A stretch of 64,000 bases of DNA. Origin: Candidatus Iainarchaeum sp. (GTDB taxonomy: Archaea; Iainarchaeota; Iainarchaeia; Iainarchaeales; Iainarchaeaceae). The stretch covers positions 64,001 through 128,000 of the forward strand of contig JBDRLP010000027.1 in assembly GCA_043812975.1 (NCBI GenBank). The letters run 5' to 3'. Of the stretch, positions 200-61,750 are shown piece after piece; the stretch's first letter is position 1; each line of letters begins with the position of its first letter. The position numbers and the translations under genes are program-made. The notes below the pieces were generated by a model. It did not search any database. It saw only the letters and a list, made by a program, of their open reading frames with translations, and was not told the DNA's origin.

Positions 200-514
200 T
201 CACTTTCTTGTAATGTTAATGTCCCTTCGAGTGTTCAATTGTCTTAAAATTTCCTTCAATTGTTCTTCGTTTAATTTTCCCTGCACCATTCCTTTTTGCA
301 TCAAACCCATGATTGCTTGAAATGCTCTGGTGTAAAGTTCCTTGTTAACAAGCCTTACATTGCTCAGCCTTTGTTTTGCCTCCTCTGTTAAGAGGCTTTT
401 CAAGACGCTTTGCATTTTGGCTTCCATTTCCAAGGATTGTTTTTCTTCCTCCTGTTGTTCTAAATATTTTTGTTTTAATTCTTCAAGCTTTTTTTCCTTC
501 AGGTCTTGGCTCAT
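200..514 (-). CDS. PDCD5-like dsDNA-binding protein
   Basis: LLTEEAKQRLSNVRLV motif and C-terminal INITRK; start moved to MSQDLK at 514; typical position downstream of rps19e. Confidence 0.88.
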   Translation of the reverse strand: MSQDLKEKKLEELKQKYLEQQEEEKQSLEMEAKMQSVLKSLLTEEAKQRLSNVRLVNKELYTRAFQAIMGLMQKGMVQGKLNEEQLKEILRQLNTRRDINITRK

Positions 515-1112
515 GCTTTTCCCCTTTAGGTTGTTCTTTTTTTTCTTTTGGAGCTTCTTTAGCTTCCTGTTTTTTTTCTTTCTGCAATTCTGCATTTTCT
601 TTCTGCACTTGAGCTTTCTTTTCATCTAATCTTTTTTTCATATTTGCTTCTATCCGATTCATTCTTTCCTGTTTTGCCATTAATTTTTTCTTATTGATTT
701 CATCAACCACTTTCTGAACATCTTTTGATTTTGCGTAAAGCAGTTTTTCTCCTAGGCCTGTTACTATTCTTCCTTTCTTATCTTTCTTAAGCAAACCTTG
801 TTTTTCAAGCTGCTGTAAACATACTCTGATAACTTTTCCTGATGCTTTTCTTTTTGCTTCAGGTTTAACTCCTCTGTTTTTTCTTCCGCCGTAATAGGTT
901 CTAAGGCTTCCTGTTCCTGTTGAACCGTGTTTATAAATCTGGTAGAGAATGCTTGCGTTTCTCACATAAAACCAATCAGGATTGTTTGGAGTTCTTTCTT
1001 TATGCGCCCCTGTTTTTATATAAGAGAATAGCTCTGGCTGTTGAATTTTGCCTTTTAGTTCTTTGGCAACTTCTTCTATAAGCATTCCTGCCGGCACGTC
1101 AAATATACCCAT
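483..1112 (-). CDS. rps19e: 30S ribosomal protein S19e with long charged C-terminal tail
   Basis: KTGAHKER..PDWFYVRNAS, YGGRKNRG and ASGKVIRVCLQQLE motifs. Confidence 0.96.
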   Translation of the reverse strand: MGIFDVPAGMLIEEVAKELKGKIQQPELFSYIKTGAHKERTPNNPDWFYVRNASILYQIYKHGSTGTGSLRTYYGGRKNRGVKPEAKRKASGKVIRVCLQQLEKQGLLKKDKKGRIVTGLGEKLLYAKSKDVQKVVDEINKKKLMAKQERMNRIEANMKKRLDEKKAQVQKENAELQKEKKQEAKEAPKEKKEQPKGEKHEPRPEGKKA

Positions 1113-1299: not shown

Positions 1300-1926
1300 T
1301 TATTCCACTACTGTCATTTTTACATTATCGAATATTGTCGAATCGGGCCCCCCATAGAATGTTGGAAATAACCAAACTCTTATGCAATTTGCTCCTGCCG
1401 GAACAAGGTAAGTGAACTCTTTATTTTGCCACGTATTATTGGTTGTGACTTCTCCAGCAGTCCCGGAGTTTCCTGCTCCGCAGCTTCTAACCATAACTAA
1501 TGCTTCTGTTGGCCCTCCTACAGTTCCTTGTTTATATGAAAAGTTTACTTTTACTGTTTTTCCATATAGTTCATTCAAATCATAATCAGTCAAAATAATC
1601 GCCCCGCCTGACGATATAGGAATAATTTCAACTGCATAGTTTCCGTATGGAGTATTAGTGCTCTGTACTGCCGTTACACCAGAGAGTAGGTCCCAGTAAT
1701 CCGGGTAAGTTGTAAGCGTCCAAGTTTCGAAGCTTGAGTTTTTAAGAAAATTTGTTGAAACTCCTGCGGCTTCTCGTATTTTGTCGAATGCTGTTGTTGC
1801 TGATGTTGTGACTTGTGTTTCTCCTGTTCCTGCTATGCTTAGTATTAGTGTGATTACGATTACGGCTACGAGTACTGCTCCGCCTATGAGTAGTAGGTAT
1901 TCTAGTGCTCCTTGTGCTTTTTGCAT
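1300..1926 (-). CDS. Class III signal peptide (type IV pilin-like) protein with CBM4/9-like C-terminal domain
   Basis: KAQ/GALEY followed by a hydrophobic helix; NFLKNSSFE...FDNVK beta-sandwich signature. Confidence 0.85.
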   Translation of the reverse strand: MQKAQGALEYLLLIGGAVLVAVIVITLILSIAGTGETQVTTSATTAFDKIREAAGVSTNFLKNSSFETWTLTTYPDYWDLLSGVTAVQSTNTPYGNYAVEIIPISSGGAIILTDYDLNELYGKTVKVNFSYKQGTVGGPTEALVMVRSCGAGNSGTAGEVTTNNTWQNKEFTYLVPAGANCIRVWLFPTFYGGPDSTIFDNVKMTVVE

Positions 1927-1966
1927 TTGATTTAGAATTGGTTTTTGAATTATTTATTGGTTTGGG
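1763..1966 (-). repeat. Shared pilin 5' module (leader + 55 codons), copy 1
   Basis: Near-identical to 2432-2633 and 3186-3380. Confidence 0.95.
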
Positions 1967-1971
1967 TTTTG

Positions 1972-2595
1972 TTATGTTTTAACTAATTTTATATCATCAA
2001 AATAAACAGTTCCGTTTGGAATTGTTGAACCTAAATTGTCCCACTTGATTTCCACAGTAATGGTTGCTCCTGCTGCTGTGCAGGTTACAGGCCCAGAACC
2101 ATCAGTCCATACATTTGGAAAGCTGCTGGTCATCCAGTCCAGAGATCTGTAACCCTCAGTACAGGAATTACTAAAAGCAATGCGTGCACTTCCGCCTATA
2201 ATATTTGGTTTGGTCCATCCTGATAAAGCATATGTATCTCCGGCTGTGACATTAAGTGTTTGGGATGCATAACCATAAGAAGAACCCGAACCATCATGAG
2301 TCATTTTCAAAGAACTGTTTCCAGTTCTGCGGTCATCTGTTGAAGAGGAAACACTTATTCCTCCTCCTGTAAGCCAACTACTCAATCCGCTTTCAAAGCT
2401 TCCGTTAGCCAAGAGATTATTGCTACCGCCGCCTGCGGCTTCTCGTATTTTGTCGAATGCTGTTGTTGCTGTTGTTGTTACTTGTGTTTCTCCTGTTCCT
2501 GCTATGCTTAGTATTAGTGTGATTACGATTACGGCTACGAGTACTGCTCCGCCGATTAAGAGTAGGTATTCTAGTGCTCCTTGTGCTTTTTGCAT
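1972..2595 (-). CDS. Class III signal peptide pilin-like protein with CBM4/9-like domain
   Basis: Same N-terminal 55 aa as its neighbours (one substitution); NLLANGSFESG...YFDDIKL. Confidence 0.85.
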   Translation of the reverse strand: MQKAQGALEYLLLIGGAVLVAVIVITLILSIAGTGETQVTTTATTAFDKIREAAGGGSNNLLANGSFESGLSSWLTGGGISVSSSTDDRRTGNSSLKMTHDGSGSSYGYASQTLNVTAGDTYALSGWTKPNIIGGSARIAFSNSCTEGYRSLDWMTSSFPNVWTDGSGPVTCTAAGATITVEIKWDNLGSTIPNGTVYFDDIKLVKT

Positions 2596-2633
2596 TTACT
2601 TAGAATTGGTTTTTGGATTATTTATTGGTTTGG
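2432..2633 (-). repeat. Shared pilin 5' module, copy 2
   Basis: Near-identical to 1763-1966. Confidence 0.95.
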
Positions 2634-2635
2634 AT

Positions 2636-3349
2636 TTAGGTCTCTGTTACTTTCACATTATCATAATCAATTGTTTGAGCACCGTAACTTAATAGTCCGA
2701 TTCCGCCTGTAGCATGTCCTGTAAAATTATCTTCTCCTGCATAAACCCCGTTTACATATAATTTTACGTTTTGTCCTATTACTACCAGTTTTATGCGGTA
2801 AGTTGTTCCGTTAACCCAAGCCGCTCCGGTTATTGGGTCAGTAAGATCCACAATTTGACCAGTACTCCAATCGTAGAGCCTCCAATAATTCCAGGCATAA
2901 TACCTGTACAACAACATCGAGTTTGTGCTTCCTGAAGTATTAGAATTTCTGTAAACTGCGCCCATATAACTTGTTCCTGAAACTGGGGTAAAATCAAATT
3001 CAAAAGTATGATCGCCATACGATCCTGTGAGATCCTGTGCAAATTTCCAACCGTCTGCTGTTGCAGCATGCCTGAACTTTCCTCCTGTAACACTCCAGAT
3101 TATATTTGACCCAGTAGTGGTCCAAACAGGATTAGATGTGTAATCCCCATCACTGAAATTATCAAAAAAACTTGCCGTTCCTCCCCCTGCGGCTTCTCGT
3201 ATTTTGTCGAATGCTGTTGTTGCTGATGTTGTGACTTGTGTTTCTCCTGTTCCTGCTATGCTTAGGATTAGTGTGATTACGATTACTGCTACGAGTACTG
3301 CTCCGCCTATGAGTAGTAGGTATTCTAGTGCTCCTTGTGCTTTTTGCAT
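2636..3349 (-). CDS. Class III signal peptide pilin-like protein with ConA/LamG-like beta-sandwich domain
   Basis: Same N-terminal 55 aa; FFDNFSDG...YRIKLVVIGQNVKLYVNG...GGIGL...YDNVKV pattern. Confidence 0.82.
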   Translation of the reverse strand: MQKAQGALEYLLLIGGAVLVAVIVITLILSIAGTGETQVTTSATTAFDKIREAAGGGTASFFDNFSDGDYTSNPVWTTTGSNIIWSVTGGKFRHAATADGWKFAQDLTGSYGDHTFEFDFTPVSGTSYMGAVYRNSNTSGSTNSMLLYRYYAWNYWRLYDWSTGQIVDLTDPITGAAWVNGTTYRIKLVVIGQNVKLYVNGVYAGEDNFTGHATGGIGLLSYGAQTIDYDNVKVTET

Positions 3350-3380
3350 TTACTTAGAATTGGTTTTTGGATTATTTATT
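3186..3380 (-). repeat. Shared pilin 5' module, copy 3
   Basis: Near-identical to 1763-1966. Confidence 0.95.
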
Positions 3381-3390
3381 CTTTTGGGTT

Positions 3391-3681
3391 TTATAAGTTT
3401 TTAATTTTCCTTTCAAATCCGCATTCTTTGCATTTTATTATTTTCATTGTTCCTGTTTTTTTTGTTTCAGAATTAGTTTTATTCAAAAAAGAATTGCATT
3501 TTTTGCAGTATTTTGTTTTTAGTTCGTTTGGAAATCTTACTCGGGTTTTTTTCCCAATTTCGATTGCAAGGCAAATATATCTTTTGCTTCGTTTCGGGTG
3601 CTTTTTCAGTTCTTTTTCAGCTAGTTCAAACAACCTGTAAATTCGTTCCAATCCGATTTGCTGCATTTTTGTGTGTTTCAT
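3391..3681 (-). CDS. rnp4: RNase P protein component 4 (Rpp21)
   Basis: ERIYRLFELA, RSKRYI, CKKC and CKECG zinc ligands. Confidence 0.92.
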   Translation of the reverse strand: MKHTKMQQIGLERIYRLFELAEKELKKHPKRSKRYICLAIEIGKKTRVRFPNELKTKYCKKCNSFLNKTNSETKKTGTMKIIKCKECGFERKIKNL

Positions 3682-4968: not shown

Positions 4969-5041
4969 TGCAGCCACGGGGATTCGAACCCCGGCCAAGA
5001 GCTTGGAAGGCTCTGATGCTAAACCACTACACCATGGCTGC
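4969..5041 (-). tRNA. tRNA-Gly(TCC)
   Basis: Cloverleaf gcagcca/tggctgc, anticodon loop cttccaa, GGTTCGAATCC T-arm. Confidence 0.96.
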
Positions 5042-5218
5042 TTTGATAAATTCTTTGTGAGTTGGCACTTTTCCAGTTTTTTTAAAAATCTGGTATTTTA
5101 AGGTGTGCTTAATATTGCTTGGTTTAATTATCTTAAAAAAGGTATCCAATTGTCCTTGATCGTAAATATAAACGGTGTGAACCGTTATCGATTAAAATAA
5201 ACTGCTTCTTTATTTATC

Positions 5219-5851
5219 ATGGAAAAAGGTTTTTGGATTGTGTGGGACGGCATTGACGGTTCAGGAAAAGGCACGGTAATTCTTGAAATTAAAAAATTCC
5301 TTATAAAAAAAGGAATTCCAGAAAACCAAATTTTGGTTACAGCTGAACCCACTAAGGGTTTTTATGGTAAAAAAGTAAGAGAGCTCCTTAATACTCATGT
5401 TAATCCTGATGTTAATGCTCAGCAATTTTTGGATCTTTATGTTGCTGACAGAGAAGAACATCTTGGAAAAGAAATAATGCCTGCTCTGAAAGAAGGAAAA
5501 ATAATTCTCTGTGACCGTTACAAGTACAGTACTTTTGTTTATCAATTACTCCAAGGCATAGAGTTAGAAAAAATAATCGAATTTCACAAGGAAATGCTGG
5601 TTCCTGATTTAATTTTAATTTTAGACCTTCCGGTTGATGTTGCTTTACAAAGAATCGACTCTGATTCAAAAAGATCAGAAAAAGAAGTTTTTGAAAAAAA
5701 AGAATTTCTTGAAAAAGTCCGTCAGGGGTTCCTTTCATTAAAAGAAATTTTTCCTGAAGAAAACATTCGTATAGTTGATTCATCCAAAAACATCGGGGAA
5801 GTAACAAAGGAAACAGCTGATATTTTATGGAACAAGATAAAGGATTTATAG
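5219..5851 (+). CDS. tmk: Thymidylate kinase
   Basis: DGIDGSGKGT P-loop, CDRY motif, ADR..H. Confidence 0.95.
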   Translation: MEKGFWIVWDGIDGSGKGTVILEIKKFLIKKGIPENQILVTAEPTKGFYGKKVRELLNTHVNPDVNAQQFLDLYVADREEHLGKEIMPALKEGKIILCDRYKYSTFVYQLLQGIELEKIIEFHKEMLVPDLILILDLPVDVALQRIDSDSKRSEKEVFEKKEFLEKVRQGFLSLKEIFPEENIRIVDSSKNIGEVTKETADILWNKIKDL

Positions 5852-20097: not shown

Positions 20098-20159
20098 TGT
20101 GTAGGAAGTCTGATCTGTGTATAAAGTCTGATTCTTGTGTAAAAAGCAAAACAAGAACA
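20098..20159 (+). repeat. GTGTA-NN-AAGTC repeat cluster 1
   Basis: Three units at 18-20 bp period ending tgtgtaaaaagcaaaacaagaaca. Confidence 0.8.
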
Positions 20160-20844: not shown

Positions 20845-20887
20845 GTGTAGAAAGTCTTGATTCTGTGTAAAAAGCAAAACAAGAACA
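20845..20887 (+). repeat. GTGTA-NN-AAGTC repeat cluster 2
   Basis: gtgtagaaagtcttgattctgtgtaaaaagcaaaacaagaaca. Confidence 0.8.
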
Positions 20888-53950: not shown

Positions 53951-54418
53951 TTATATAAATCTTACATTAATTCCAGAAGGACTAATTCCTGATTCTTTGT
54001 CCACAGTAACTATTATCAATCTAGAATTGGGTTCTGCATCATCGGGAATTGGTTCAAAACAATCAAATTCCGCCCCTACATCTATTGTGTTTGTACAACT
54101 TCCTGAAACACAATAGGGTATATTAATTTGATTATGAGAAAGTGCAGAGTATGTTGTTTCTAACAAATTTCCTGAACAGTTTATTGTTGCTTCTGCAGGA
54201 ACAACAATGTTAATTGTTTGTTTTGTTCCTTCTCCGGATAATGCTACAAATTGTATTGTGTCTGCTAATTTTTCTGCAGAAACTTTAAGCTTGCTCAGAT
54301 TGGCAACATCTTTTGTTGAATTTGATGCCAATTCAGCACTTGGTTGTACAAGAGCTACAATAAACATTATAGCAATGAGTATTGTAAAAAGAAATTCAAC
54401 CGATGCTTGTCCTTTCAT
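53951..54418 (-). CDS. Pilin-like protein
   Basis: MKGQ/ASVEF class III signal. Confidence 0.82.
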   Translation of the reverse strand: MKGQASVEFLFTILIAIMFIVALVQPSAELASNSTKDVANLSKLKVSAEKLADTIQFVALSGEGTKQTINIVVPAEATINCSGNLLETTYSALSHNQINIPYCVSGSCTNTIDVGAEFDCFEPIPDDAEPNSRLIIVTVDKESGISPSGINVRFI

Positions 54419-55548
54419 CCCAGTATTAGATTCCATAAAAAATCTCCTGTTAATTGAAGTGCGATATATGCGATGAAGATTGCTGGAACAAACGCCATTG
54501 TTTTTCTTACTTTAATTTCTTTTGGCGCTAATCCTTTTTTTGCTTTTTCTTTAAGCATTGCAACATCTTCTTCGGTAAAGCCTCCTGCTTGTGATGGACC
54601 CCCAATTATTTTTCCTTTAATTTGGAAGTCTTCCAATGAGCTTTCTATTTTATTATTCATTAAGTTCTTTATAACTCTTTTTATTGACGGTCCTTCCACT
54701 AATTCAATTTTTTCCTTCTTCTGAACCATATAAACATCAGATATCATCCCTTCTTCTAAATCACTAATTTTTATTGTTTCTTTGAAAGCATATTCTCTTG
54801 TTTCATTATACAATTTCCAGAACCAGTAACCAATTAACAAGGGGAAGAAAACAAAAGCAGCATCCATTATGAATATCTCATAATTCAGAACCAAACCAAC
54901 AATACCAACACTTATAACAAATAAATATCTTATTTTTCTTGGCAAAGCAGAGATTATTATTAATGCAGGGAATATCAAAAACTCAGTAACTGCCAATTGT
55001 TCAATACTTAATTTCAAACCTGCGATAAGAATCCCCAAACCTAAAAGGTTCTTTGATTTATCCTTCATTATTTCAAAAGTTTTTCCTATTATTTCAGGGT
55101 GTTTTCTCAAAGCAGTAAAGCTCATTAAAATTCCTAATGGGAAAACAGCAAGAGCAGAGTAAAGTATTAAGCTGAAAGAAAAAATCGGGAGTTCTATTGT
55201 AGTAAAAGGCCAGTTAGTTAATTGAATAGCATTTGCAAGTACTGCATAATTTACTGGATTAACAATTGCTAAAGCGGTTACTAGTTTTACATCTCCTCCG
55301 GCCCATACTCCTAATTTCCATAATAAGTAGGATACTCCGAATGCTATTGCTCCTGCGCCTATTGCAAACAATAATGGTTCTATTGATTCAGCTTTTATAC
55401 TTTCAATTATTTTAAGCCCCAACCCTGCTCCTATTAGTGTGTAGGTTAGTTTGTTGTAAACCATCCGTTCCTTAAGGTCTGTATAAGTAGCAATTAGTAG
55501 AGCTATGATTGATAAGAAAAAGTAAAGCAGGATGATCACAAGAATCAT
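54415..55548 (-). CDS. Prepilin peptidase (A24, EppA/FlaK-like)
   Basis: YTDLKER, WAGGDVKL, LEEGMI, MAFVPAI. Confidence 0.92.
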   Translation of the reverse strand: MILVIILLYFFLSIIALLIATYTDLKERMVYNKLTYTLIGAGLGLKIIESIKAESIEPLLFAIGAGAIAFGVSYLLWKLGVWAGGDVKLVTALAIVNPVNYAVLANAIQLTNWPFTTIELPIFSFSLILYSALAVFPLGILMSFTALRKHPEIIGKTFEIMKDKSKNLLGLGILIAGLKLSIEQLAVTEFLIFPALIIISALPRKIRYLFVISVGIVGLVLNYEIFIMDAAFVFFPLLIGYWFWKLYNETREYAFKETIKISDLEEGMISDVYMVQKKEKIELVEGPSIKRVIKNLMNNKIESSLEDFQIKGKIIGGPSQAGGFTEEDVAMLKEKAKKGLAPKEIKVRKTMAFVPAIFIAYIALQLTGDFLWNLILG

Positions 55549-55730: not shown

Positions 55731-55997
55731 TTACGACGCTGTTGCAGTACAGTTTGGGTATGTTCCGCCGCATGTATAGGTAATCTGGTCAACTAGTACG
55801 GTACCGCCGCAAGCTCTTGGATTAGCCAAAGCTGCTTGTTGTGTACACAATGATGTAGCTGCTGATAACCCTGTTTGTGTTCCTCCGGTATCTGCAATAC
55901 TTAACAGCAGTGTGATAACTATGACTGCGACCAGTACTGCTCCTCCAATTAAGAGAAGATATTCTAGTGCTCCTTGTCCTTTTTTATCCAAAATCAT
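55731..55997 (-). CDS. Probable major pilin
   Basis: KKGQ/GALEYLLLIGGAVLVAVIVITL; strong SD ggaggt. Confidence 0.88.
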   Translation of the reverse strand: MILDKKGQGALEYLLLIGGAVLVAVIVITLLLSIADTGGTQTGLSAATSLCTQQAALANPRACGGTVLVDQITYTCGGTYPNCTATAS

Positions 55998-56026: not shown

Positions 56027-56191
56027 TTATGTGCTTGTGGACTCAATGGCCTCATTAATCCGAGTCCCGCCTTCTTCTACTACATTTTGTTTTATTCCGA
56101 GCATTATAAATGTTACAACTAATATTACTGCTCCAAGTAAAACTAATATTTCTACTGAAGTTTGTCCTTTTTCTTCTTGTAACAATTTCAT
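56027..56191 (-). CDS. Small pilin (54 aa)
   Basis: Manual ORF MKLLQEEKGQTSVEILVLLGAVILVV... Confidence 0.85.
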   Translation of the reverse strand: MKLLQEEKGQTSVEILVLLGAVILVVTFIMLGIKQNVVEEGGTRINEAIESTST

Positions 56192-57141
56192 AATGTTCCC
56201 ACCAATCCCGCGGCAAATAGCTCTGCTGCGACATAGGCTGAATAAGCTATAAACAGAAGCACTGGGAAGTATATAATACTTTTCCCCATGTTACCATCTC
56301 TCATGATTGCCATCATTAAAGCGGTCGCTAAAGTTTCTATGAAAATGTAAGCCTGTATTGAAAGATTGATTATGTTAAGCGCTGACTCTGCAGATGCCTG
56401 TTCTGCCTGAGATGCTACTGAGGAAGCAGCGCTAATTAATAGTGTTGAAATTGTTGACACAAACCCGAAAATCATTGGCGCTACGAACCCTCCGGCCACA
56501 AACATAAAGATAACCTGCATGACTGTTCTTGCTTTTCTGTCTTTGTTAATCCTATGAGATTCTCTTACATCTTCGGCTATTTCTTCTAATACACTTGCAA
56601 GTCCTGCCCCTGCATAAACAGAATCAATGATAATTGTAACTGTTCTCTGAACAAGTCGTGAATCAACATTCTCTGAAAGACTTTTCAATGAGTTTTCAAA
56701 GTTTTCTCCTTCCTCAAGTTTTCTTAAAACCTCATTCATTTCTTTTTTCAAAGGACCATATTCTGCATTTGCGATTTCCCTTAAAGCATATTCATAAGTC
56801 CCTCCTGCCCTTAAAGTATCAGCCATTTGTCTTAATGCATCAGGAAGAGCTTCTTCTATCTGATCAATTCTTCCTTTTGCTTTTAAGTAAGGGTAACCAA
56901 TAAGAATGTCAACCAGAACCATGAAAACAAGAATTCCGAACTGAACGCTTTGTTTTAATCCAAGTATTAGTTCAACAAAAAAGAAAGTTGCTATTCCTGC
57001 AACTATTGAAATTATTCCTGCAAGTATTATCCATAAGAATGGATCTACTTTGAATTCTGCACTTCGCAAATAACGCGAGTATTTTTGCAGTAAAGGAGAA
57101 TTCTTTAACAATGGTGTTTTTTCTATGATTCTTAATGCCAT
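56188..57141 (-). CDS. Pilus platform protein (T2SS-F/TadC-like)
   Basis: IEEALPDALRQMA..LRAG, YGPLKKE. Confidence 0.92.
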   Translation of the reverse strand: MALRIIEKTPLLKNSPLLQKYSRYLRSAEFKVDPFLWIILAGIISIVAGIATFFFVELILGLKQSVQFGILVFMVLVDILIGYPYLKAKGRIDQIEEALPDALRQMADTLRAGGTYEYALREIANAEYGPLKKEMNEVLRKLEEGENFENSLKSLSENVDSRLVQRTVTIIIDSVYAGAGLASVLEEIAEDVRESHRINKDRKARTVMQVIFMFVAGGFVAPMIFGFVSTISTLLISAASSVASQAEQASAESALNIINLSIQAYIFIETLATALMMAIMRDGNMGKSIIYFPVLLFIAYSAYVAAELFAAGLVGTL

Positions 57142-57145
57142 TTTT

Positions 57146-58279
57146 TCACACTCTCGGTTGGGATATTTTTAGGTAAAATATTAGGAAGCCTAGAACAAGA
57201 GGCATTCCAACTAAATACATTAATGCTATTGCTATTGGTGAAATAGCTACGCTTCCAACTGAAATTGGAGCGTTTGTTACTGATCCTATAATTGCCACAA
57301 ATACTGGGGCTACTATTGCAATGAAAATATATATTACTCCGAAGAAGTTCATTCTTTCTGCAAAGTCTCTTATTTTTACTCTCATATCAAAACTTACATC
57401 TTCTGCTATAGTGTTCATTATTTTTGATAAGTTTCCTCCGGTTTTTAGTGCTCTTATAATGTGAAATAATGCGCTTCGGAGCGCTTTTGATTGTGTTCTT
57501 AATGCAAAGTGCCTTAAAGCATCTTTTGTGTCAGTTCCTTCTTCAATTTCACTAATAGTTCTTGAAAATTCTTCACTTAAAATTCCATAATCAGAAGTTG
57601 CAATTGTTTGTATTGTTTTGTACAAACCAATTCCTGCTTTTAGTTCTGTTGACATGTGCCTTAAAGCAAAAGGAAGTTCTATACTTACCGCGTCTCCTCT
57701 TTGTTGTGCTTTGCTTTTTGGTATCATCAGCATTATCAGCATAAAAAAAAGACCAACTACTCCTCCGAATATAACTGAAAAAGTATAAGGGAGTTCGAAA
57801 AACCAGCTAGTTGCTGCTATTATTGCAAAAGTAAACAAACCTACAAGTGCTGCTGAGGCAATTGAAACCGCCAGCCATTGATTTAAGGAATATTTCATGT
57901 TTGCTGAGTAAAGATAATATCTAATATCGCTTGCTAAAGGTAGCCTTTTTATTAAATTAGAAATCGGCTGGAAGGGCAACCTGAATAATAAGTAAAATGA
58001 CCCTAACTGTTTTATTGCAGGGGATTGGAATTCTTGTAAATCTTCAACTTTTTGAATATTAATTTTTGCCTGTTCTCCTTCAGCAATAATACCTCTTAGT
58101 TCTCCAAGCTTTCCGCCAACTTGTTCAAATTCAACACCCTGTTCCCTGTATTTCTTTTTCATCCGGCCGACAATTTTTTCAACCTGGTTATAATCAACAG
58201 TTTCTGGTTTTTTATCAGAATCTTTTTTTTTCTTGTTTTTTTCTTCAATTGTTTTTTTCAGATTATCAAGGCTTGGCAT
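57146..58279 (-). CDS. Pilus platform protein (T2SS-F/TadB/C-like)
   Basis: ELPFALRHMSTELKAG, YGILSEEF, TGGNL. Confidence 0.92.
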   Translation of the reverse strand: MPSLDNLKKTIEEKNKKKKDSDKKPETVDYNQVEKIVGRMKKKYREQGVEFEQVGGKLGELRGIIAEGEQAKINIQKVEDLQEFQSPAIKQLGSFYLLFRLPFQPISNLIKRLPLASDIRYYLYSANMKYSLNQWLAVSIASAALVGLFTFAIIAATSWFFELPYTFSVIFGGVVGLFFMLIMLMIPKSKAQQRGDAVSIELPFALRHMSTELKAGIGLYKTIQTIATSDYGILSEEFSRTISEIEEGTDTKDALRHFALRTQSKALRSALFHIIRALKTGGNLSKIMNTIAEDVSFDMRVKIRDFAERMNFFGVIYIFIAIVAPVFVAIIGSVTNAPISVGSVAISPIAIALMYLVGMPLVLGFLIFYLKISQPRV

Positions 58280-58281
58280 TT

Positions 58282-61200
58282 TTATCGACCTTTAAACAAA
58301 TATTTTTTCAATTCCGGTGCAACTTCACTCATCTTTCGTATTTTTTGTTTTGCCAATTTTAAAAGGAACTCTGTTCTTTTTTCAATTTCTTTTTCAATTT
58401 CTTTTTCAGAAATTCCTGTCATAGTTGCCAATAATTGAAGGTATTTAACTTGTGTTTTTGTCTTTTTAAGGGAATCGGTTTTGGCATCTCTGCTGTAAAT
58501 TAACTCGGTTTTGGCCTTTCCTTTAAGAACATCAACGACCTCAGAAATTTCAGTTATTCTTCTTATTGTTCCTGTTTTTTTATCATGTAATCTGTGTTGG
58601 ACTACAATAAAGTTTAATCCTGAAAGCATTACTTCCGGAACATTCATTGGAGGGCTTGTAACTCTTACTATTGTTTCTTGAGGGCTGTTTGCGTGCACTG
58701 TTCCGAGCGAGTTTCCCACTATCATGCCTTCTGCCACAAAGTTGTGCGGTTTTCTCCCACTCATCTTTTTTTCATTAATTGTTAGGTCGTACACAAAACC
58801 ATTGTAATGATATGAGTGTATTGCGACTATTTTATCCCAGAATATGTCGCTTTTGCCAAGCATTCTGAGTTTTGGCGTGTCAATTCCAGTTTCTTCGAAT
58901 GCCTCAGCCAGTTTTAGTGTAACTTCTCTGCTTGGCGTTCTTTCTTTTCTCTTGTAAAAGCTAATCAAACCCTGTGTTACTCCTGCCCTTCTTGCTATCT
59001 CTGAATTGCTGTAACCTTTTTGTTTTGCCTTTTCAAGAAGATTTATTATAATGTCATTGCAATTTATGAGATCAACATTTGTGTTTGCCTTTTTGTTTTG
59101 CCTTAGTAATTCCTCTGTTTTTGCGATTTTTTGTTCGTACTTTATAGGGTATGTTTCATAGAATTTTTTTACCTGACTGATTCCGTAAATGTATAATCTG
59201 AACCACCTGCTGTTGTGTGATTTTGACTCGTATTTCCTTGAAATAATTCCTTCAGTTAATAATGCGTATTTGAAAAAATCAATGTAGTATTCGTTTCCGC
59301 ATGTGAACACTATAGCATTATTTTCCGCATCTATATGCCCTTCTGCGTCGAAAAATCCTGCTACAAAAGATTTTAGGTCTGAAGTATAGTGTGAATTTGA
59401 CATTTTTGTTTTTGCCCTATCTCCTGCGGGGATATCCAAGAGTTTTTGGATGGTTCTGGATTTTTCAATCCCGCTCACATGAGCCTCGTAACAATCCTTT
59501 TCTGGGCGGGGATAAACAATTCCAACATGTGTGTCATTGAGTTTTTCTTTCATGAAACGTGTGAATTTTGGTATTATTTGTTCTTCTTCCGCGAAAAGGC
59601 TTATCCTTCCTTCATTACAGAGATATTCCTTTCCATTTTTTTTCCTTATTCTTTGATAATCAAGAATATTTCCGTCTCCGTGAAGAAGTCCTGACCAGTA
59701 CTCGATTTCTTTTTCCGATACATTTTCATCTCTAATTAGTGTTCGTGGTGTTGCTATGCTAATCCCTTCCACAAGTTTTTCAGCATTAACCTGGATTATG
59801 TCATTGTCCAAAGTGTAGAATGGATGGTTTCCAGTGGCTGTTATTTCTGCCCCCGAAGCGAGTTTTATGTGGTAAACTTTTCCCTGGTATGGTTTTCTTC
59901 TTGCTTCAACGATTTCTGATTTGAAAATTTTTCCATCGGAATCCATTGAATTGATGTACTCGTTTTTGACTTCGCACACTTCCCAATCTTTTTCTCTTCG
60001 GATTTTGTTTTTGCTTAATTGTTCTTCAACAAACTCATCCATAGACCTCAAACCAGAAGTCAAAGCAATTTTTGTGTTTCCTGTTAAACACCCATCATGT
60101 CCTGTATTGAATGCAGTGAATAATGAAAATGCTTCATCGTGTCTGATTTCTCCTACAATAATCCTGTCAGGACGCATTCTCAAAGAGTTTTTGGTTAAAA
60201 TATCAAGTGTTAATTCTCCTGTGCCTTCCAGTCCCGGAGGTCGTGCTTCCATTCTGATCCAGTGTTTTAAAGGAATGTTCAATTCAGCTGTATCTTCTAT
60301 CGAAATTATTCTTTCGGTTTCCGGAATAAAGCTTGCCAAAACGTTTAGTGTTGTTGTTTTTCCAGAACCAGTGCCACCAGCTATCAAAATATTTGCAGGT
60401 CTTGTATTAAGTCCCTCAACACATACCCACAAAAATGCTGCAGCTTCTGCATTTAGTGTTCCGTAAATAATCAAATCTATTATCGAGTAAGGATCATCTC
60501 TGAATTTTCTGATTGTTAATGTTGAGCCCTGAACTGATGAAGGAGGTATTGTTGCATTAACACGACTTCCGTCAGGAAGTCTTGCATCCAATAACGGGCT
60601 GCTTATGTCAACTCTTCTGCCTATTTGTCTTGCAATTCTGTTAATTAAATCCTGAATCTCGTTATCAGAATAAAATTCAATGTTTGTAAGCATCATTTCA
60701 TGCTCTCTGTGAAAAACATAAACCGGAAGTTTTGGCCCTATAACCATTATTTCCTCCAGTTTATCATCCTTGATAAGGTCATCTATCAACCCATAACCAA
60801 CCATTTCTCTGACAACAGCATCAGCATAAAATTCATACCTTGTTTTTGGGATATTTAATTCAGGAGAATCCCTTAGTATTTCCAAAATTTTTTCATAGTA
60901 AACATTTCTTCTTTGTTCCTGGTTTCTAATCCTGTAAGGAGTTATGCTGACTATTCTTGTGGCTGCTTCTTTAATTGTTTTAATAATTGTTTTTTCGCTT
61001 CCAACAGGTCTTGGCACAGGCGTCCAGTAATACAGAAGCGGTTCTCCTGGTATTTCATAAATTTTTGTGTTACCGTATTCTTCCAGTAATTTTTTGTTTG
61101 ATTTTTGCAGTTGTTTTTCTGTTTGTGATTTTTGTTCTTCCGGAACAGCATCCACGCTGTCAGGAAGAACTTTTTCCTGCGGAGGAAGTGCTTTTTTTAT

Positions 61201-61608
61201 TTCCTCAATTTTTTTCTTTGCCTCTTCTGCTTTTTTTGCAGCTTCATCATTTTCTTTTGCAAGTATCTGGGCTTGGGTGTGTTCAGCAGGGATTTCTATA
61301 TTGTTAATACTAAACGGTTTTGATACTGGTTCCTTTTTTTCTGCGACAGCATCAAGTTTTAAGTTTAGTTCATGTTCGGGTTTTTCTTCTGAAATAGGTT
61401 CTTCTATTGTCTCTTCTGCTTTTTTCACTTCATCCATCAGTTTTTTGGTTGTATCAGAAACAGGTTTTGCAGCTGGAGAAGGTTGTTGAACTGGTTTTGG
61501 TTCAGGTATTGGTTGTTCCACTGGTTTTTTCTGCGGTTCAGCATCTTCTCCTTTTTTGCCTTTTTTTGATTTTATTTTGTGAAATAAATCATCCATATAG
61601 TCTGCCAT
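58282..61608 (-). CDS. Type IV pilus assembly ATPase (CpaF/TadA family) with intein
   Basis: GGTGSGKTT, IEDTAEL, RMRPDRIIVGE, NTGHDG|SLGTVH; start set at MADYMDD. Confidence 0.93.
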   Translation of the reverse strand: MADYMDDLFHKIKSKKGKKGEDAEPQKKPVEQPIPEPKPVQQPSPAAKPVSDTTKKLMDEVKKAEETIEEPISEEKPEHELNLKLDAVAEKKEPVSKPFSINNIEIPAEHTQAQILAKENDEAAKKAEEAKKKIEEIKKALPPQEKVLPDSVDAVPEEQKSQTEKQLQKSNKKLLEEYGNTKIYEIPGEPLLYYWTPVPRPVGSEKTIIKTIKEAATRIVSITPYRIRNQEQRRNVYYEKILEILRDSPELNIPKTRYEFYADAVVREMVGYGLIDDLIKDDKLEEIMVIGPKLPVYVFHREHEMMLTNIEFYSDNEIQDLINRIARQIGRRVDISSPLLDARLPDGSRVNATIPPSSVQGSTLTIRKFRDDPYSIIDLIIYGTLNAEAAAFLWVCVEGLNTRPANILIAGGTGSGKTTTLNVLASFIPETERIISIEDTAELNIPLKHWIRMEARPPGLEGTGELTLDILTKNSLRMRPDRIIVGEIRHDEAFSLFTAFNTGHDGCLTGNTKIALTSGLRSMDEFVEEQLSKNKIRREKDWEVCEVKNEYINSMDSDGKIFKSEIVEARRKPYQGKVYHIKLASGAEITATGNHPFYTLDNDIIQVNAEKLVEGISIATPRTLIRDENVSEKEIEYWSGLLHGDGNILDYQRIRKKNGKEYLCNEGRISLFAEEEQIIPKFTRFMKEKLNDTHVGIVYPRPEKDCYEAHVSGIEKSRTIQKLLDIPAGDRAKTKMSNSHYTSDLKSFVAGFFDAEGHIDAENNAIVFTCGNEYYIDFFKYALLTEGIISRKYESKSHNSRWFRLYIYGISQVKKFYETYPIKYEQKIAKTEELLRQNKKANTNVDLINCNDIIINLLEKAKQKGYSNSEIARRAGVTQGLISFYKRKERTPSREVTLKLAEAFEETGIDTPKLRMLGKSDIFWDKIVAIHSYHYNGFVYDLTINEKKMSGRKPHNFVAEGMIVGNSLGTVHANSPQETIVRVTSPPMNVPEVMLSGLNFIVVQHRLHDKKTGTIRRITEISEVVDVLKGKAKTELIYSRDAKTDSLKKTKTQVKYLQLLATMTGISEKEIEKEIEKRTEFLLKLAKQKIRKMSEVAPELKKYLFKGR
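58711..60090 (-). mobile_element. Intein (460 aa) with LAGLIDADG endonuclease and HTH
   Basis: CLTG start, ATGNHPF, GLLHGDG/GFFDAEG, VYDLTI...VGN|S. Confidence 0.93.
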
Positions 61609-61647
61609 AGAAGTCGGAATAATTGAGGGTTTTGTATAATATAAACC

Positions 61648-61750
61648 TTTTTCTTTCTTTTCAAAGAAAGAAACCGGACAGAAAAAAATTTTTGTACGAC
61701 CTAGCAAAACTGGAAGTTTTGCACGGAAGCTTCACCAAAAAGAAAGAAAA
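61648..61750. repeat. Triplex-geometry element T4 with internal structured insertion
   Basis: tttttctttctttt-c-aaagaaagaaa-[53 nt]-aag-cttcacc-aaaaagaaagaaaa. Confidence 0.65.

Follow-up and report, generated by a model that had tools for sequence, protein, structure and literature searches.

A variable slot of modular type IV pilin-like genes with uniform stems and differing heads in Candidatus Iainarchaeum sp.

Modular pilins have been described in bacteria. In PilB and PilC of Streptococcus sanguinis, a class III signal peptide, together with the N-terminus of a pilin, is followed by a short linker and a domain that is not specific to pili (vWA in PilB and a ConA-like lectin in PilC), and the extra domains of bacterial modular pilins, which are often carbohydrate-binding, have been proposed to be tip adhesins (PMC8179133). 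In the archaeon Haloferax volcanii, the several pilins PilA1 to PilA6 have nearly identical H-domains and different adhesive properties, and the H-domain is needed for pilus assembly (PMC4371748). Here, a 64,000 nucleotide (nt) stretch of the genome of Candidatus Iainarchaeum sp. (GenBank assembly GCA_043812975.1; contig JBDRLP010000027.1, positions 64001 to 128000 of the forward strand), referred to below as the window, was examined, and an array of three adjacent, intact minus-strand open reading frames (ORFs), P3, P2 and P1, was found to encode modular pilin-like proteins. The array is flanked by rpr2 on one side and rps19e on the other, and this position is referred to as the slot. The features of the slot, including those of the repeated constant block and of the heads, the predicted folds of which resemble carbohydrate-binding modules (CBMs), are as follows.

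3391 to 3681, minus strand: rpr2, RNase P subunit gene (PF04032), the conserved upstream flank of the slot
3180 to 3391, minus strand: constant block copy 1, the leader from the rpr2 stop codon plus P3 codons 1 to 55 (direct-repeat family)
2636 to 3349, minus strand: P3, modular pilin of 237 amino acids (aa), with a 55-residue stem and a predicted CBM66/ConA-like beta-sandwich head, residues 56 to 237 (ORF, PF04021, PF06439)
2426 to 2637, minus strand: constant block copy 2, the leader plus P2 codons 1 to 55 (direct-repeat family)
1972 to 2595, minus strand: P2, modular pilin of 207 aa, with a stem and a CBM4/9-family head (ORF, PF02018 above the cut-off)
1757 to 1968, minus strand: constant block copy 3, the leader plus P1 codons 1 to 55 (direct-repeat family)
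1300 to 1926, minus strand: P1, modular pilin of 208 aa, with a stem and a predicted CBM4/CBM22-like head (ORF, structure model, profile search)
483 to 1112, minus strand: rps19e (PF01090), the conserved downstream flank of the slot

The constant block is a 212-nt direct repeat, copies 3, 2 and 1 of which were 86, 100 and 94% identical to the reference, respectively (95, 100 and 94% by gapped blastn, with E values of at most 6e-90). Pairwise comparison of codons 1 to 55 shows 3, 6 and 8 differing codons and a single amino acid change overall. Past codon 55, the DNA identity between heads was 0.52–0.57, against 0.49–0.54 for shuffled sequences. An earlier note on this DNA had described a near-identical leader and 55-codon block of ~200 bp in three genes, followed by unrelated heads. 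The block was confirmed; the heads are unrelated at the level of DNA identity, but those of P1 and P2 share 24% protein identity (E value 0.035) and appear to be distant relatives of one fold. A fourth copy of the block, for which the earlier note suggested a search, was not found in the 68 contigs of the genome (94.5% complete), and neither were partial copies of the block or heads or a second copy of any head.

Each unit begins at the stop codon of the preceding gene, and there are no genes between the P3, P2 and P1 ORFs. Short A/C-rich microhomology flanks each junction and also the empty site, and no long target duplication was found at the junctions. The spacers between cassettes are A-rich and 40–45 nt long, and none was among the 25 longest of the 96 inverted repeats listed. 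Neither integrase or transposase genes nor ABC-transporter genes were recognised among the ORFs adjoining the slot. Four tyrosine recombinase genes (PF00589) were identified, the nearest at ~47 kb on the contig. A GC-rich hairpin-like stretch directly precedes the rps19e start codon (window ~1113–1190); a similar form is present in genome G004 and absent from G001, G002, G003, G005 and G014.

The slot was then examined in related genomes. In the same family, rpr2 was located in 21 of 22 genomes, and the sequence downstream was found to carry one or more pilin genes in 10 and none between the flanks in 8 (3 were undetermined). The distance from rpr2 to rps19e is only 123–247 nt in four of the eight pilin-free slots. 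Other genomes of the same genus carry 0, 0, 0, 1 (G003) and 2 (G005) slot genes versus three here, none with a P1, P2 or P3 head, and the single G003 gene encodes a cysteine-rich stalk and a different head. Seven genomes of other genera in the family each carry one LamG-type slot gene (five were scanned, all PF13385). For the order, 60 of the 106 genomes outside the family with a match to rpr2, mostly those with the best scores, were examined; 16 of the 60 were dropped as rps19e was not present in the same stretch. Of the remaining 44 with both flanks, nine have between one and three slot pilin genes, the heads being beta-helix, immunoglobulin-like or unclassified, and one of these has two slot genes with 88% stem identity and unrelated heads. 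Hence the same three genes in the same order are not a general feature of relatives, and the variation in cassette number and content predicted in the earlier note was found. In L031 (G021), a second LamG-headed pilin gene lies upstream of rpr2, indicating that the slot can spill both ways. Single genes with a similar leader were also seen at other sites (L042, L043 and G003:C24). In L042 (coordinates 5001–5771), a lone pilin gene precedes an ftsZ-like gene, with a stem 79% identical to that in the window and a CBM4/9-like head, and by its sequence such a cassette is also found outside the rpr2 slot.

Heads also differ among close relatives of G005. The two slot genes of G005 have leaders and stems identical at 191 of 191 nt and carry different heads, and this arrangement is repeated at 99.9% in metagenome contig L044. 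The G005 block is distinct, being ~67% identical to the block in the window as protein. In contig L046 the flanks are close to those of G005 (rps19e, 580/606 nt, 95.7%; rpr2, 257/277 nt, 92.8%), whereas the first heads have diverged (359/579 nt; 62% as DNA and 51% as protein) and the second heads, in the same position, are unrelated (271/495 nt, 54.7%, against 53% for shuffled sequences). In L045, the only cassette, a relative of the second G005 gene, is directly behind rpr2, i.e. there is one cassette fewer.

The first stem of L046 is closer to its neighbour (177/191 nt) than to its orthologue in G005 (170/191 nt). Ten bases, three of them in the non-coding leader, are common to both L046 stems and absent from both G005 copies, and the 14 other variable sites are private or mixed. 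This pattern is concerted evolution: two stems of one genome resemble each other more closely than the stems of orthologous cassettes do. Both homogenisation of the block within genomes and breakpoints at its end were evident in these comparisons, in partial support of the interpretation in the earlier note. The G003 stem differs from that in the window at 16–17 of 28 synonymous positions, versus 30 of 177 in rps19e. In eight Iainarchaeota-like contigs (L056, L060, L063, L065, L069, L075, L076 and L125), two or three tandem pilin genes are present in a pilus locus, with 5′ DNA 89–99% identical and globular domains that are diverged but homologous; on sequence grounds, these would represent the same concerted evolution without exchange of folds.

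All three proteins include a class III signal peptide (PF04021; 25.9–26 bits, with a cut-off of 23.7). The stems have a charged leader, a cleavage site after G/A, Gln at +1 and Glu at +5 and then a hydrophobic helix, and comparison with the table in PMC4371748 shows that they carry the K-A/Q motif of EppA substrates. The P3 model consists of a single helix (residues 2–53) followed by the head, with no separate globular pilin domain, and this predicted short stem fits a pilin of the Epd/Flp type. Two further genes in the window are relevant.

55731 to 55997, minus strand: probable major pilin, 88 aa, with a Shine-Dalgarno-like leader, in the pilus assembly locus ("major" being suggested by its size and position)
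54415 to 55548, minus strand: prepilin peptidase with A24 and archaeal PepC domains (PF01478, E value 3.8e-13; PF06819, E value 7.5e-5), the likely processing enzyme

These two genes adjoin each other. Further genes at 56188–61707, recognised from sequence, are those we take to be a pilus ATPase gene and two platform-like genes; as read from the sequence, the ATPase gene (58282–61707, 1141 aa) is apparently interrupted by a large intein-like insert. RadA is encoded in the genome, and a similar split, in a frame of 831 aa, is seen in its match (G000:C27:49435–51687). The stems and the major pilin agree in all of the first 23 mature residues and in 27 of the first 28, so the match of ~24 residues in the earlier note holds as protein, but the DNA is only 76–81% identical. 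As 14–16 of 26 codons for the same residue differ, the stems do not at present recombine with the major pilin gene of this genome; gene conversion from it was rejected, and recent DNA exchange with it is not supported. Stems are closest to the major pilin of their own genome in 7 of 11 genomes (37/40 residues in G005 and 33/40 here). An 1183-aa pilin-like protein is also encoded elsewhere (G000:C48:2247–5833), behind a leader that matches that of the cassettes at 83% over 30 nt, and such giant proteins are found in relatives, one with a P2-like domain (G005:C31).

The folds of the heads were examined using Pfam and structure prediction. The P2 head matches CBM_4_9 (PF02018) above the cut-off (E value 1.4e-8), and the P1 head matches the same family below it (E value 0.01). 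The P3 head falls just below the cut-off for 3keto-disac_hyd (PF06439; E value 8.6e-6). A model of the P1 head built on a 12-row alignment had a predicted local distance difference test (pLDDT) score of 86 and resembled the CBM4-2 structure 2y6j (template modelling (TM) score 0.76) and CBM22 structure 4xup, with TM scores in the range 0.67–0.76. The P1 alignment profile retrieved 23 solved sequences; a phage fibre ranked first, and most of the others were enzymes that carry CBMs. P3 folded alone (pLDDT 54) gave a beta-sandwich nearest to CBM66 (4b1m/4azz) and galectins. A single-sequence search of the PDB with the P2 head gave only E values of 0.3–0.6, and identities of the heads to solved structures are 14–19%. 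The lectin-like character proposed in the earlier note thus agrees with Pfam for P2 and with the predicted models for P1 and P3; sugar binding by the three heads is suggested by predicted fold only.

Relatives of the heads were sought more widely. No P1, P2 or P3 head was found at the slot in the 214 other genomes of the phylum, and the phylum search (215 genomes) detected distant matches (25–33%) to the three heads in 3, 4 and 3 other genomes, respectively, mostly inside large proteins. With the P3 head as query, a full HMMER scan of 1.84 billion representatives found 73 proteins. The best of these relatives (43–47%) are internal domains of proteins of 600–2622 aa, assigned by source names to Gammaproteobacteria/Pseudomonadota, and two of them are named PKD-domain proteins. 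In word-index searches with the P3 head, the sole match among 186 candidates was the query protein, and none of 2226 longer proteins matched; in viral contigs none of 6 pattern matches was a P3-head relative and none of 79 was a stem relative. A P1 allele (P0081) has a head 81% identical to that of P1, and its stem residues 30–37 match the major pilin of the window and not the block. G027, which belongs to another family, carries four modular pilin genes at another locus. Their heads match P3 (29%), the first head of G005 (47%), the second head of L046 (32%) and LamG, whereas only 14–20 of 45 stem residues are identical to those of the partners' stems, and the five G027 stems, including that of its own major pilin, form one clade (support 96/81).

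The same TATA-like 8-mer precedes P1, P2 and P3.

3373 to 3380, minus strand: TATA-like box of P3, starting 31 nt before the ATG (predicted leaderless promoter)
2619 to 2626, minus strand: TATA-like box of P2, 31 nt before the ATG
1951 to 1958, minus strand: TATA-like box of P1, 32 nt before the ATG

Genome-wide, such boxes peak at 29–31 nt before start codons (61 matches there; 976 crude ORFs). As each gene has its own box at the usual distance and no Shine-Dalgarno-like word is present in the leaders, all three are probably expressed, as leaderless messages. A scan for bacterial sigma-70 promoters, the scope of which does not include archaeal promoters, was at chance level (5 versus 6.0 expected). 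The earlier note had suggested antigenic variation. However, silent cassettes were not found, the array consisting of three whole genes, each with a TATA-like box, and silent-donor switching of the Neisseria type is not supported; the cassette turnover and lectin-like fold type proposed with it are supported.

The block has a further peculiarity. In the three copies 54/54, 54/54 and 53/54 codons (161 of 162 in total; 1762–1926, 2431–2595 and 3185–3349) end in A or C, and these were the only 3 of 10,407 genome windows with a fraction of at least 0.9 (mean 0.52), whereas the heads are average. The chance of such a bias under the codon usage of the window is ~1e-16. The predicted folding energy of the block is −16 kcal/mol, versus −37 ± 4.6 kcal/mol for synonymous resamples, none of 200 of which was as weak. 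The fraction of A/C-ending codons is 0.91–0.96 in the two-copy arrays of G005 and L046 and 0.38–0.80 in single-copy slot genes, and the arrays of G145, G143 and G027 have no such bias.

Metagenome data were also searched. Six runs (X1 to X6) were available as low-depth contigs only, the best holding 0.16 of the words; X2 to X5 gave scattered short pieces and X6 none, hence stretches without coverage are uninformative. No genome or long contig of the same species was among at least 63 metagenome loci listed (best 79%). Pieces that match the P3 block-head junction and the junction of the P2 end with the P1 leader exactly were present in independent runs. In X1, one 377-nt contig passes from rpr2 and one block straight into the P2 head, so that 754 nt are missing. 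It differs from P3 at four positions, all with the P2 base (codons 21, 28, 39 and 42), and codons 12–14 are of the P3/P1 type. X1 and X3, from different studies, also include a P3-like head with near-identical ends and 96 nt diverged in the middle (window 2647–2864). In X3 this head runs past the stop codon of P3 into other sequence, with an open frame on hand translation, and it is possibly a donor or a longer allele. Elsewhere in the window, a 43-nt direct repeat (20117–20159 and 20845–20887; 86% identical, 728 nt apart) was seen around a membrane-protein gene.

Together, these findings make it probable that the slot holds modular type IV pilin-like genes in which the promoter-plus-stem block is a recombination arm and the heads are pilus-borne adhesins. 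Each gene would be transcribed from its own TATA box, the prepilin peptidase would cut after K-A, and the processed proteins would be co-polymerised with the major pilin. If so, the stem helix must match that of the resident major pilin, and selection would keep it compatible with the resident pilus, as suggested by the Haloferax H-domain that is needed for assembly (PMC4371748). RadA-type exchange between blocks would keep stems and leaders uniform by gene conversion. A crossover between two blocks would pop out or duplicate one head-plus-block unit, and a crossover in the block and in the conserved downstream flank would replace the last head with one from incoming DNA. The constant block alone does not account for the initial joining of a stem and a new head. 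New heads would enter rarely, from a pool of surface-protein domains common to other Iainarchaeota and bacteria, by a non-homologous joining step that was itself not observed. Selection for sticking to host or surface glycans, or for escape from viruses that bind the pilus, would maintain turnover of the heads, at the pace at which strains and species diverge and not as a programmed switch.

A number of observations weigh against this explanation. Uniform multi-copy arrays are in the minority, as a single LamG-type gene occupies 7 of the 10 pilin-bearing slots in the family, and outside the family 35 of the 44 genomes with both flanks have no pilin gene in the slot. In G143 the three stems are only 55–68% alike. 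The absence of sites shared by orthologues in the comparison of L046 and G005 is forced by the identity of the two G005 copies, and the strong preference for codons ending in A or C may make copies diverge less at synonymous sites. A tree of 35 stems (132 DNA columns) was mostly unresolved and did not join the three window stems with support. The match of stem to major pilin fails in 4 of 11 genomes, and kin among the 11 are not independent. The X1 contig has a depth of 4.8 and ends in adapter sequence, and its joint, which fits a block-to-block crossover, could equally reflect an assembly path through the P1 block; a 151-nt piece from X4 retains the P3 block-to-head junction unchanged. The P3 model is of low confidence, and several heads in relatives have no Pfam match, indicating that not all are lectin-like.

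Other explanations were considered. The uniform blocks could be an assembly artefact caused by collapsed or mis-joined repeats, as the G005 blocks are 100% identical and repeats of ~200 nt trouble short-read assembly. However, the window copies differ at 3–8 codons, independent runs hold exact junction pieces, L044 repeats the G005 arrangement and L046 has two distinct copies, making an artefact most improbable. It is also unlikely that the genes are old paralogues with static heads, in which only the stems undergo gene conversion and genomes differ by loss from a larger ancestral array. Concerted evolution of stems was seen directly, empty sites are common, and the three head families common with G027 are as expected of an old repertoire. 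However, the ancestor of a single genus would need to have had an array with seven or more types of head, the window heads were not found at the slot in the 214 other genomes searched, their best matches being elsewhere or inside large proteins, and the P3 head is closer to bacterial domains (43–47%) than to that in G027 (29%). The excess of synonymous differences in the G003 stem over those in rps19e also points to replacement. Insertion of whole self-promoted pilin genes, singly and non-homologously at gene ends, with uniformity of the stems arising later and the block being a product, is judged to have a similarly low probability. That units start at the preceding stop codon with their own TATA-like box, that similar single genes with leaders occur at L042, L043 and G003:C24, and that microhomology is present at the junctions and the empty site would all suit it, but no integrase or transposase was recognised beside the slot, the four tyrosine recombinases are elsewhere, there is no long target duplication, and the replacement of the last head in L046 keeps copy number, which suits a crossover in the block.

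The genetics may be as proposed and the function different: the proteins may catch sugars in a membrane-anchored or bindosome-like form, act as tags for self-recognition or be decoys for viruses, and not be host adhesins on the main pilus. Class III signal peptides are also found on substrate-binding proteins of archaea (PMC13705601), a degree of adhesion is provided by membrane-bound pilins even when there is no pilus (PMC4371748), and CBM-type folds also occur in phage fibres. However, 27 of 28 helix residues are those of the major pilin, which the helix follows in several lineages, the ORFs beside the slot include no recognised ABC-transporter genes, and rapid turnover of heads would be expected of recognition more than of nutrient uptake. 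A different function is therefore possible, though not favoured. A stronger form of the proposal, an active adhesin-shuffling device in which promoter-plus-stem repeats allow head units to leave as circles, re-enter and move between cells of a population, heads are captured from giant surface proteins of nearby bacteria and adapted to the resident pilus helix, the head set determines the host cell to which the symbiont can attach and the A/C-only coding is part of the device, is doubtful; if it were true, the heads would be direct probes for hosts.

The preferred explanation, pilus-borne adhesins, bears on the way in which DPANN archaea locate and attach to their hosts; the literature searched names no host for Iainarchaeota. 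Binding of TM7x, a bacterial episymbiont, to its host involves minor pilins of a lectin-like kind as well as glycans of the host (PMC11623550). The three heads, which are small, soluble and foldable, could be expressed as probes, and the conserved flanks allow the slot to be typed across strains. Archaeal pilin arrays with homogenised stems and exchanged heads were not described in the papers found by full-text literature searches, though supplements of archaeal pilus surveys may list such genes, and the main text of PMC13705601 makes no mention of Iainarchaeota.

Several known systems were compared with the array. An integron cassette array was rejected as there is no adjacent tyrosine recombinase, the nearest PF00589 gene being ~47 kb away. 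A diversity-generating retroelement target was rejected as no match to the reverse transcriptase family PF00078 was found in the genome (94.5% complete) and the heads have no second copy. Polymorphic toxin cassettes were rejected on the basis of CBM-like heads and the lack of genes between the three ORFs. Polymorphic toxin systems, as described in PMC3482391, likewise have a constant 5′ delivery body and a variable 3′ module replaced by recombination, but here the folds are binding folds, immunity genes are absent, and each cassette is a complete promoter-bearing gene. Neisseria pilE/pilS also involves pilin genes and homologous recombination via conserved pilin sequence; unlike that system, as presented in PMC4877100, the array has no silent donors and no single expression locus, and whole unrelated domains change instead of pilin loops. 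PilA1 to PilA6 are paralogues, any one of which can form a pilus (PMC4371748), whereas the common part here extends to the promoter and to synonymous sites, and the folds of the C-terminal parts differ. Unlike the bacterial modular pilins of PMC8179133, the proteins studied here are archaeal, with a stem predicted to be one 52-residue helix without a globular pilin domain, and multiple gene copies with uniform promoter-plus-stem DNA and with heads differing among close relatives are not part of that account as far as it was available. Similarly, the descriptions of the archaeal type IV filament (T4F) system 1/Epd pilus drawn on here (PMC13705601, PMC4858521) mention neither a variable slot nor homogenised stems or exchanged heads. 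In design, the proteins correspond to bacterial modular pilins on the Epd/system 1 pilus type of Methanococcus maripaludis (PMC13705601, PMC4858521). Modular pilins are known from bacteria. Comparison of genomes with flanks 91–96% identical gives good support for the replacement of whole predicted binding domains on a uniform stem, a way of diversifying pili that was not found described for archaea in the literature searched, and the heads probably serve as adhesins.

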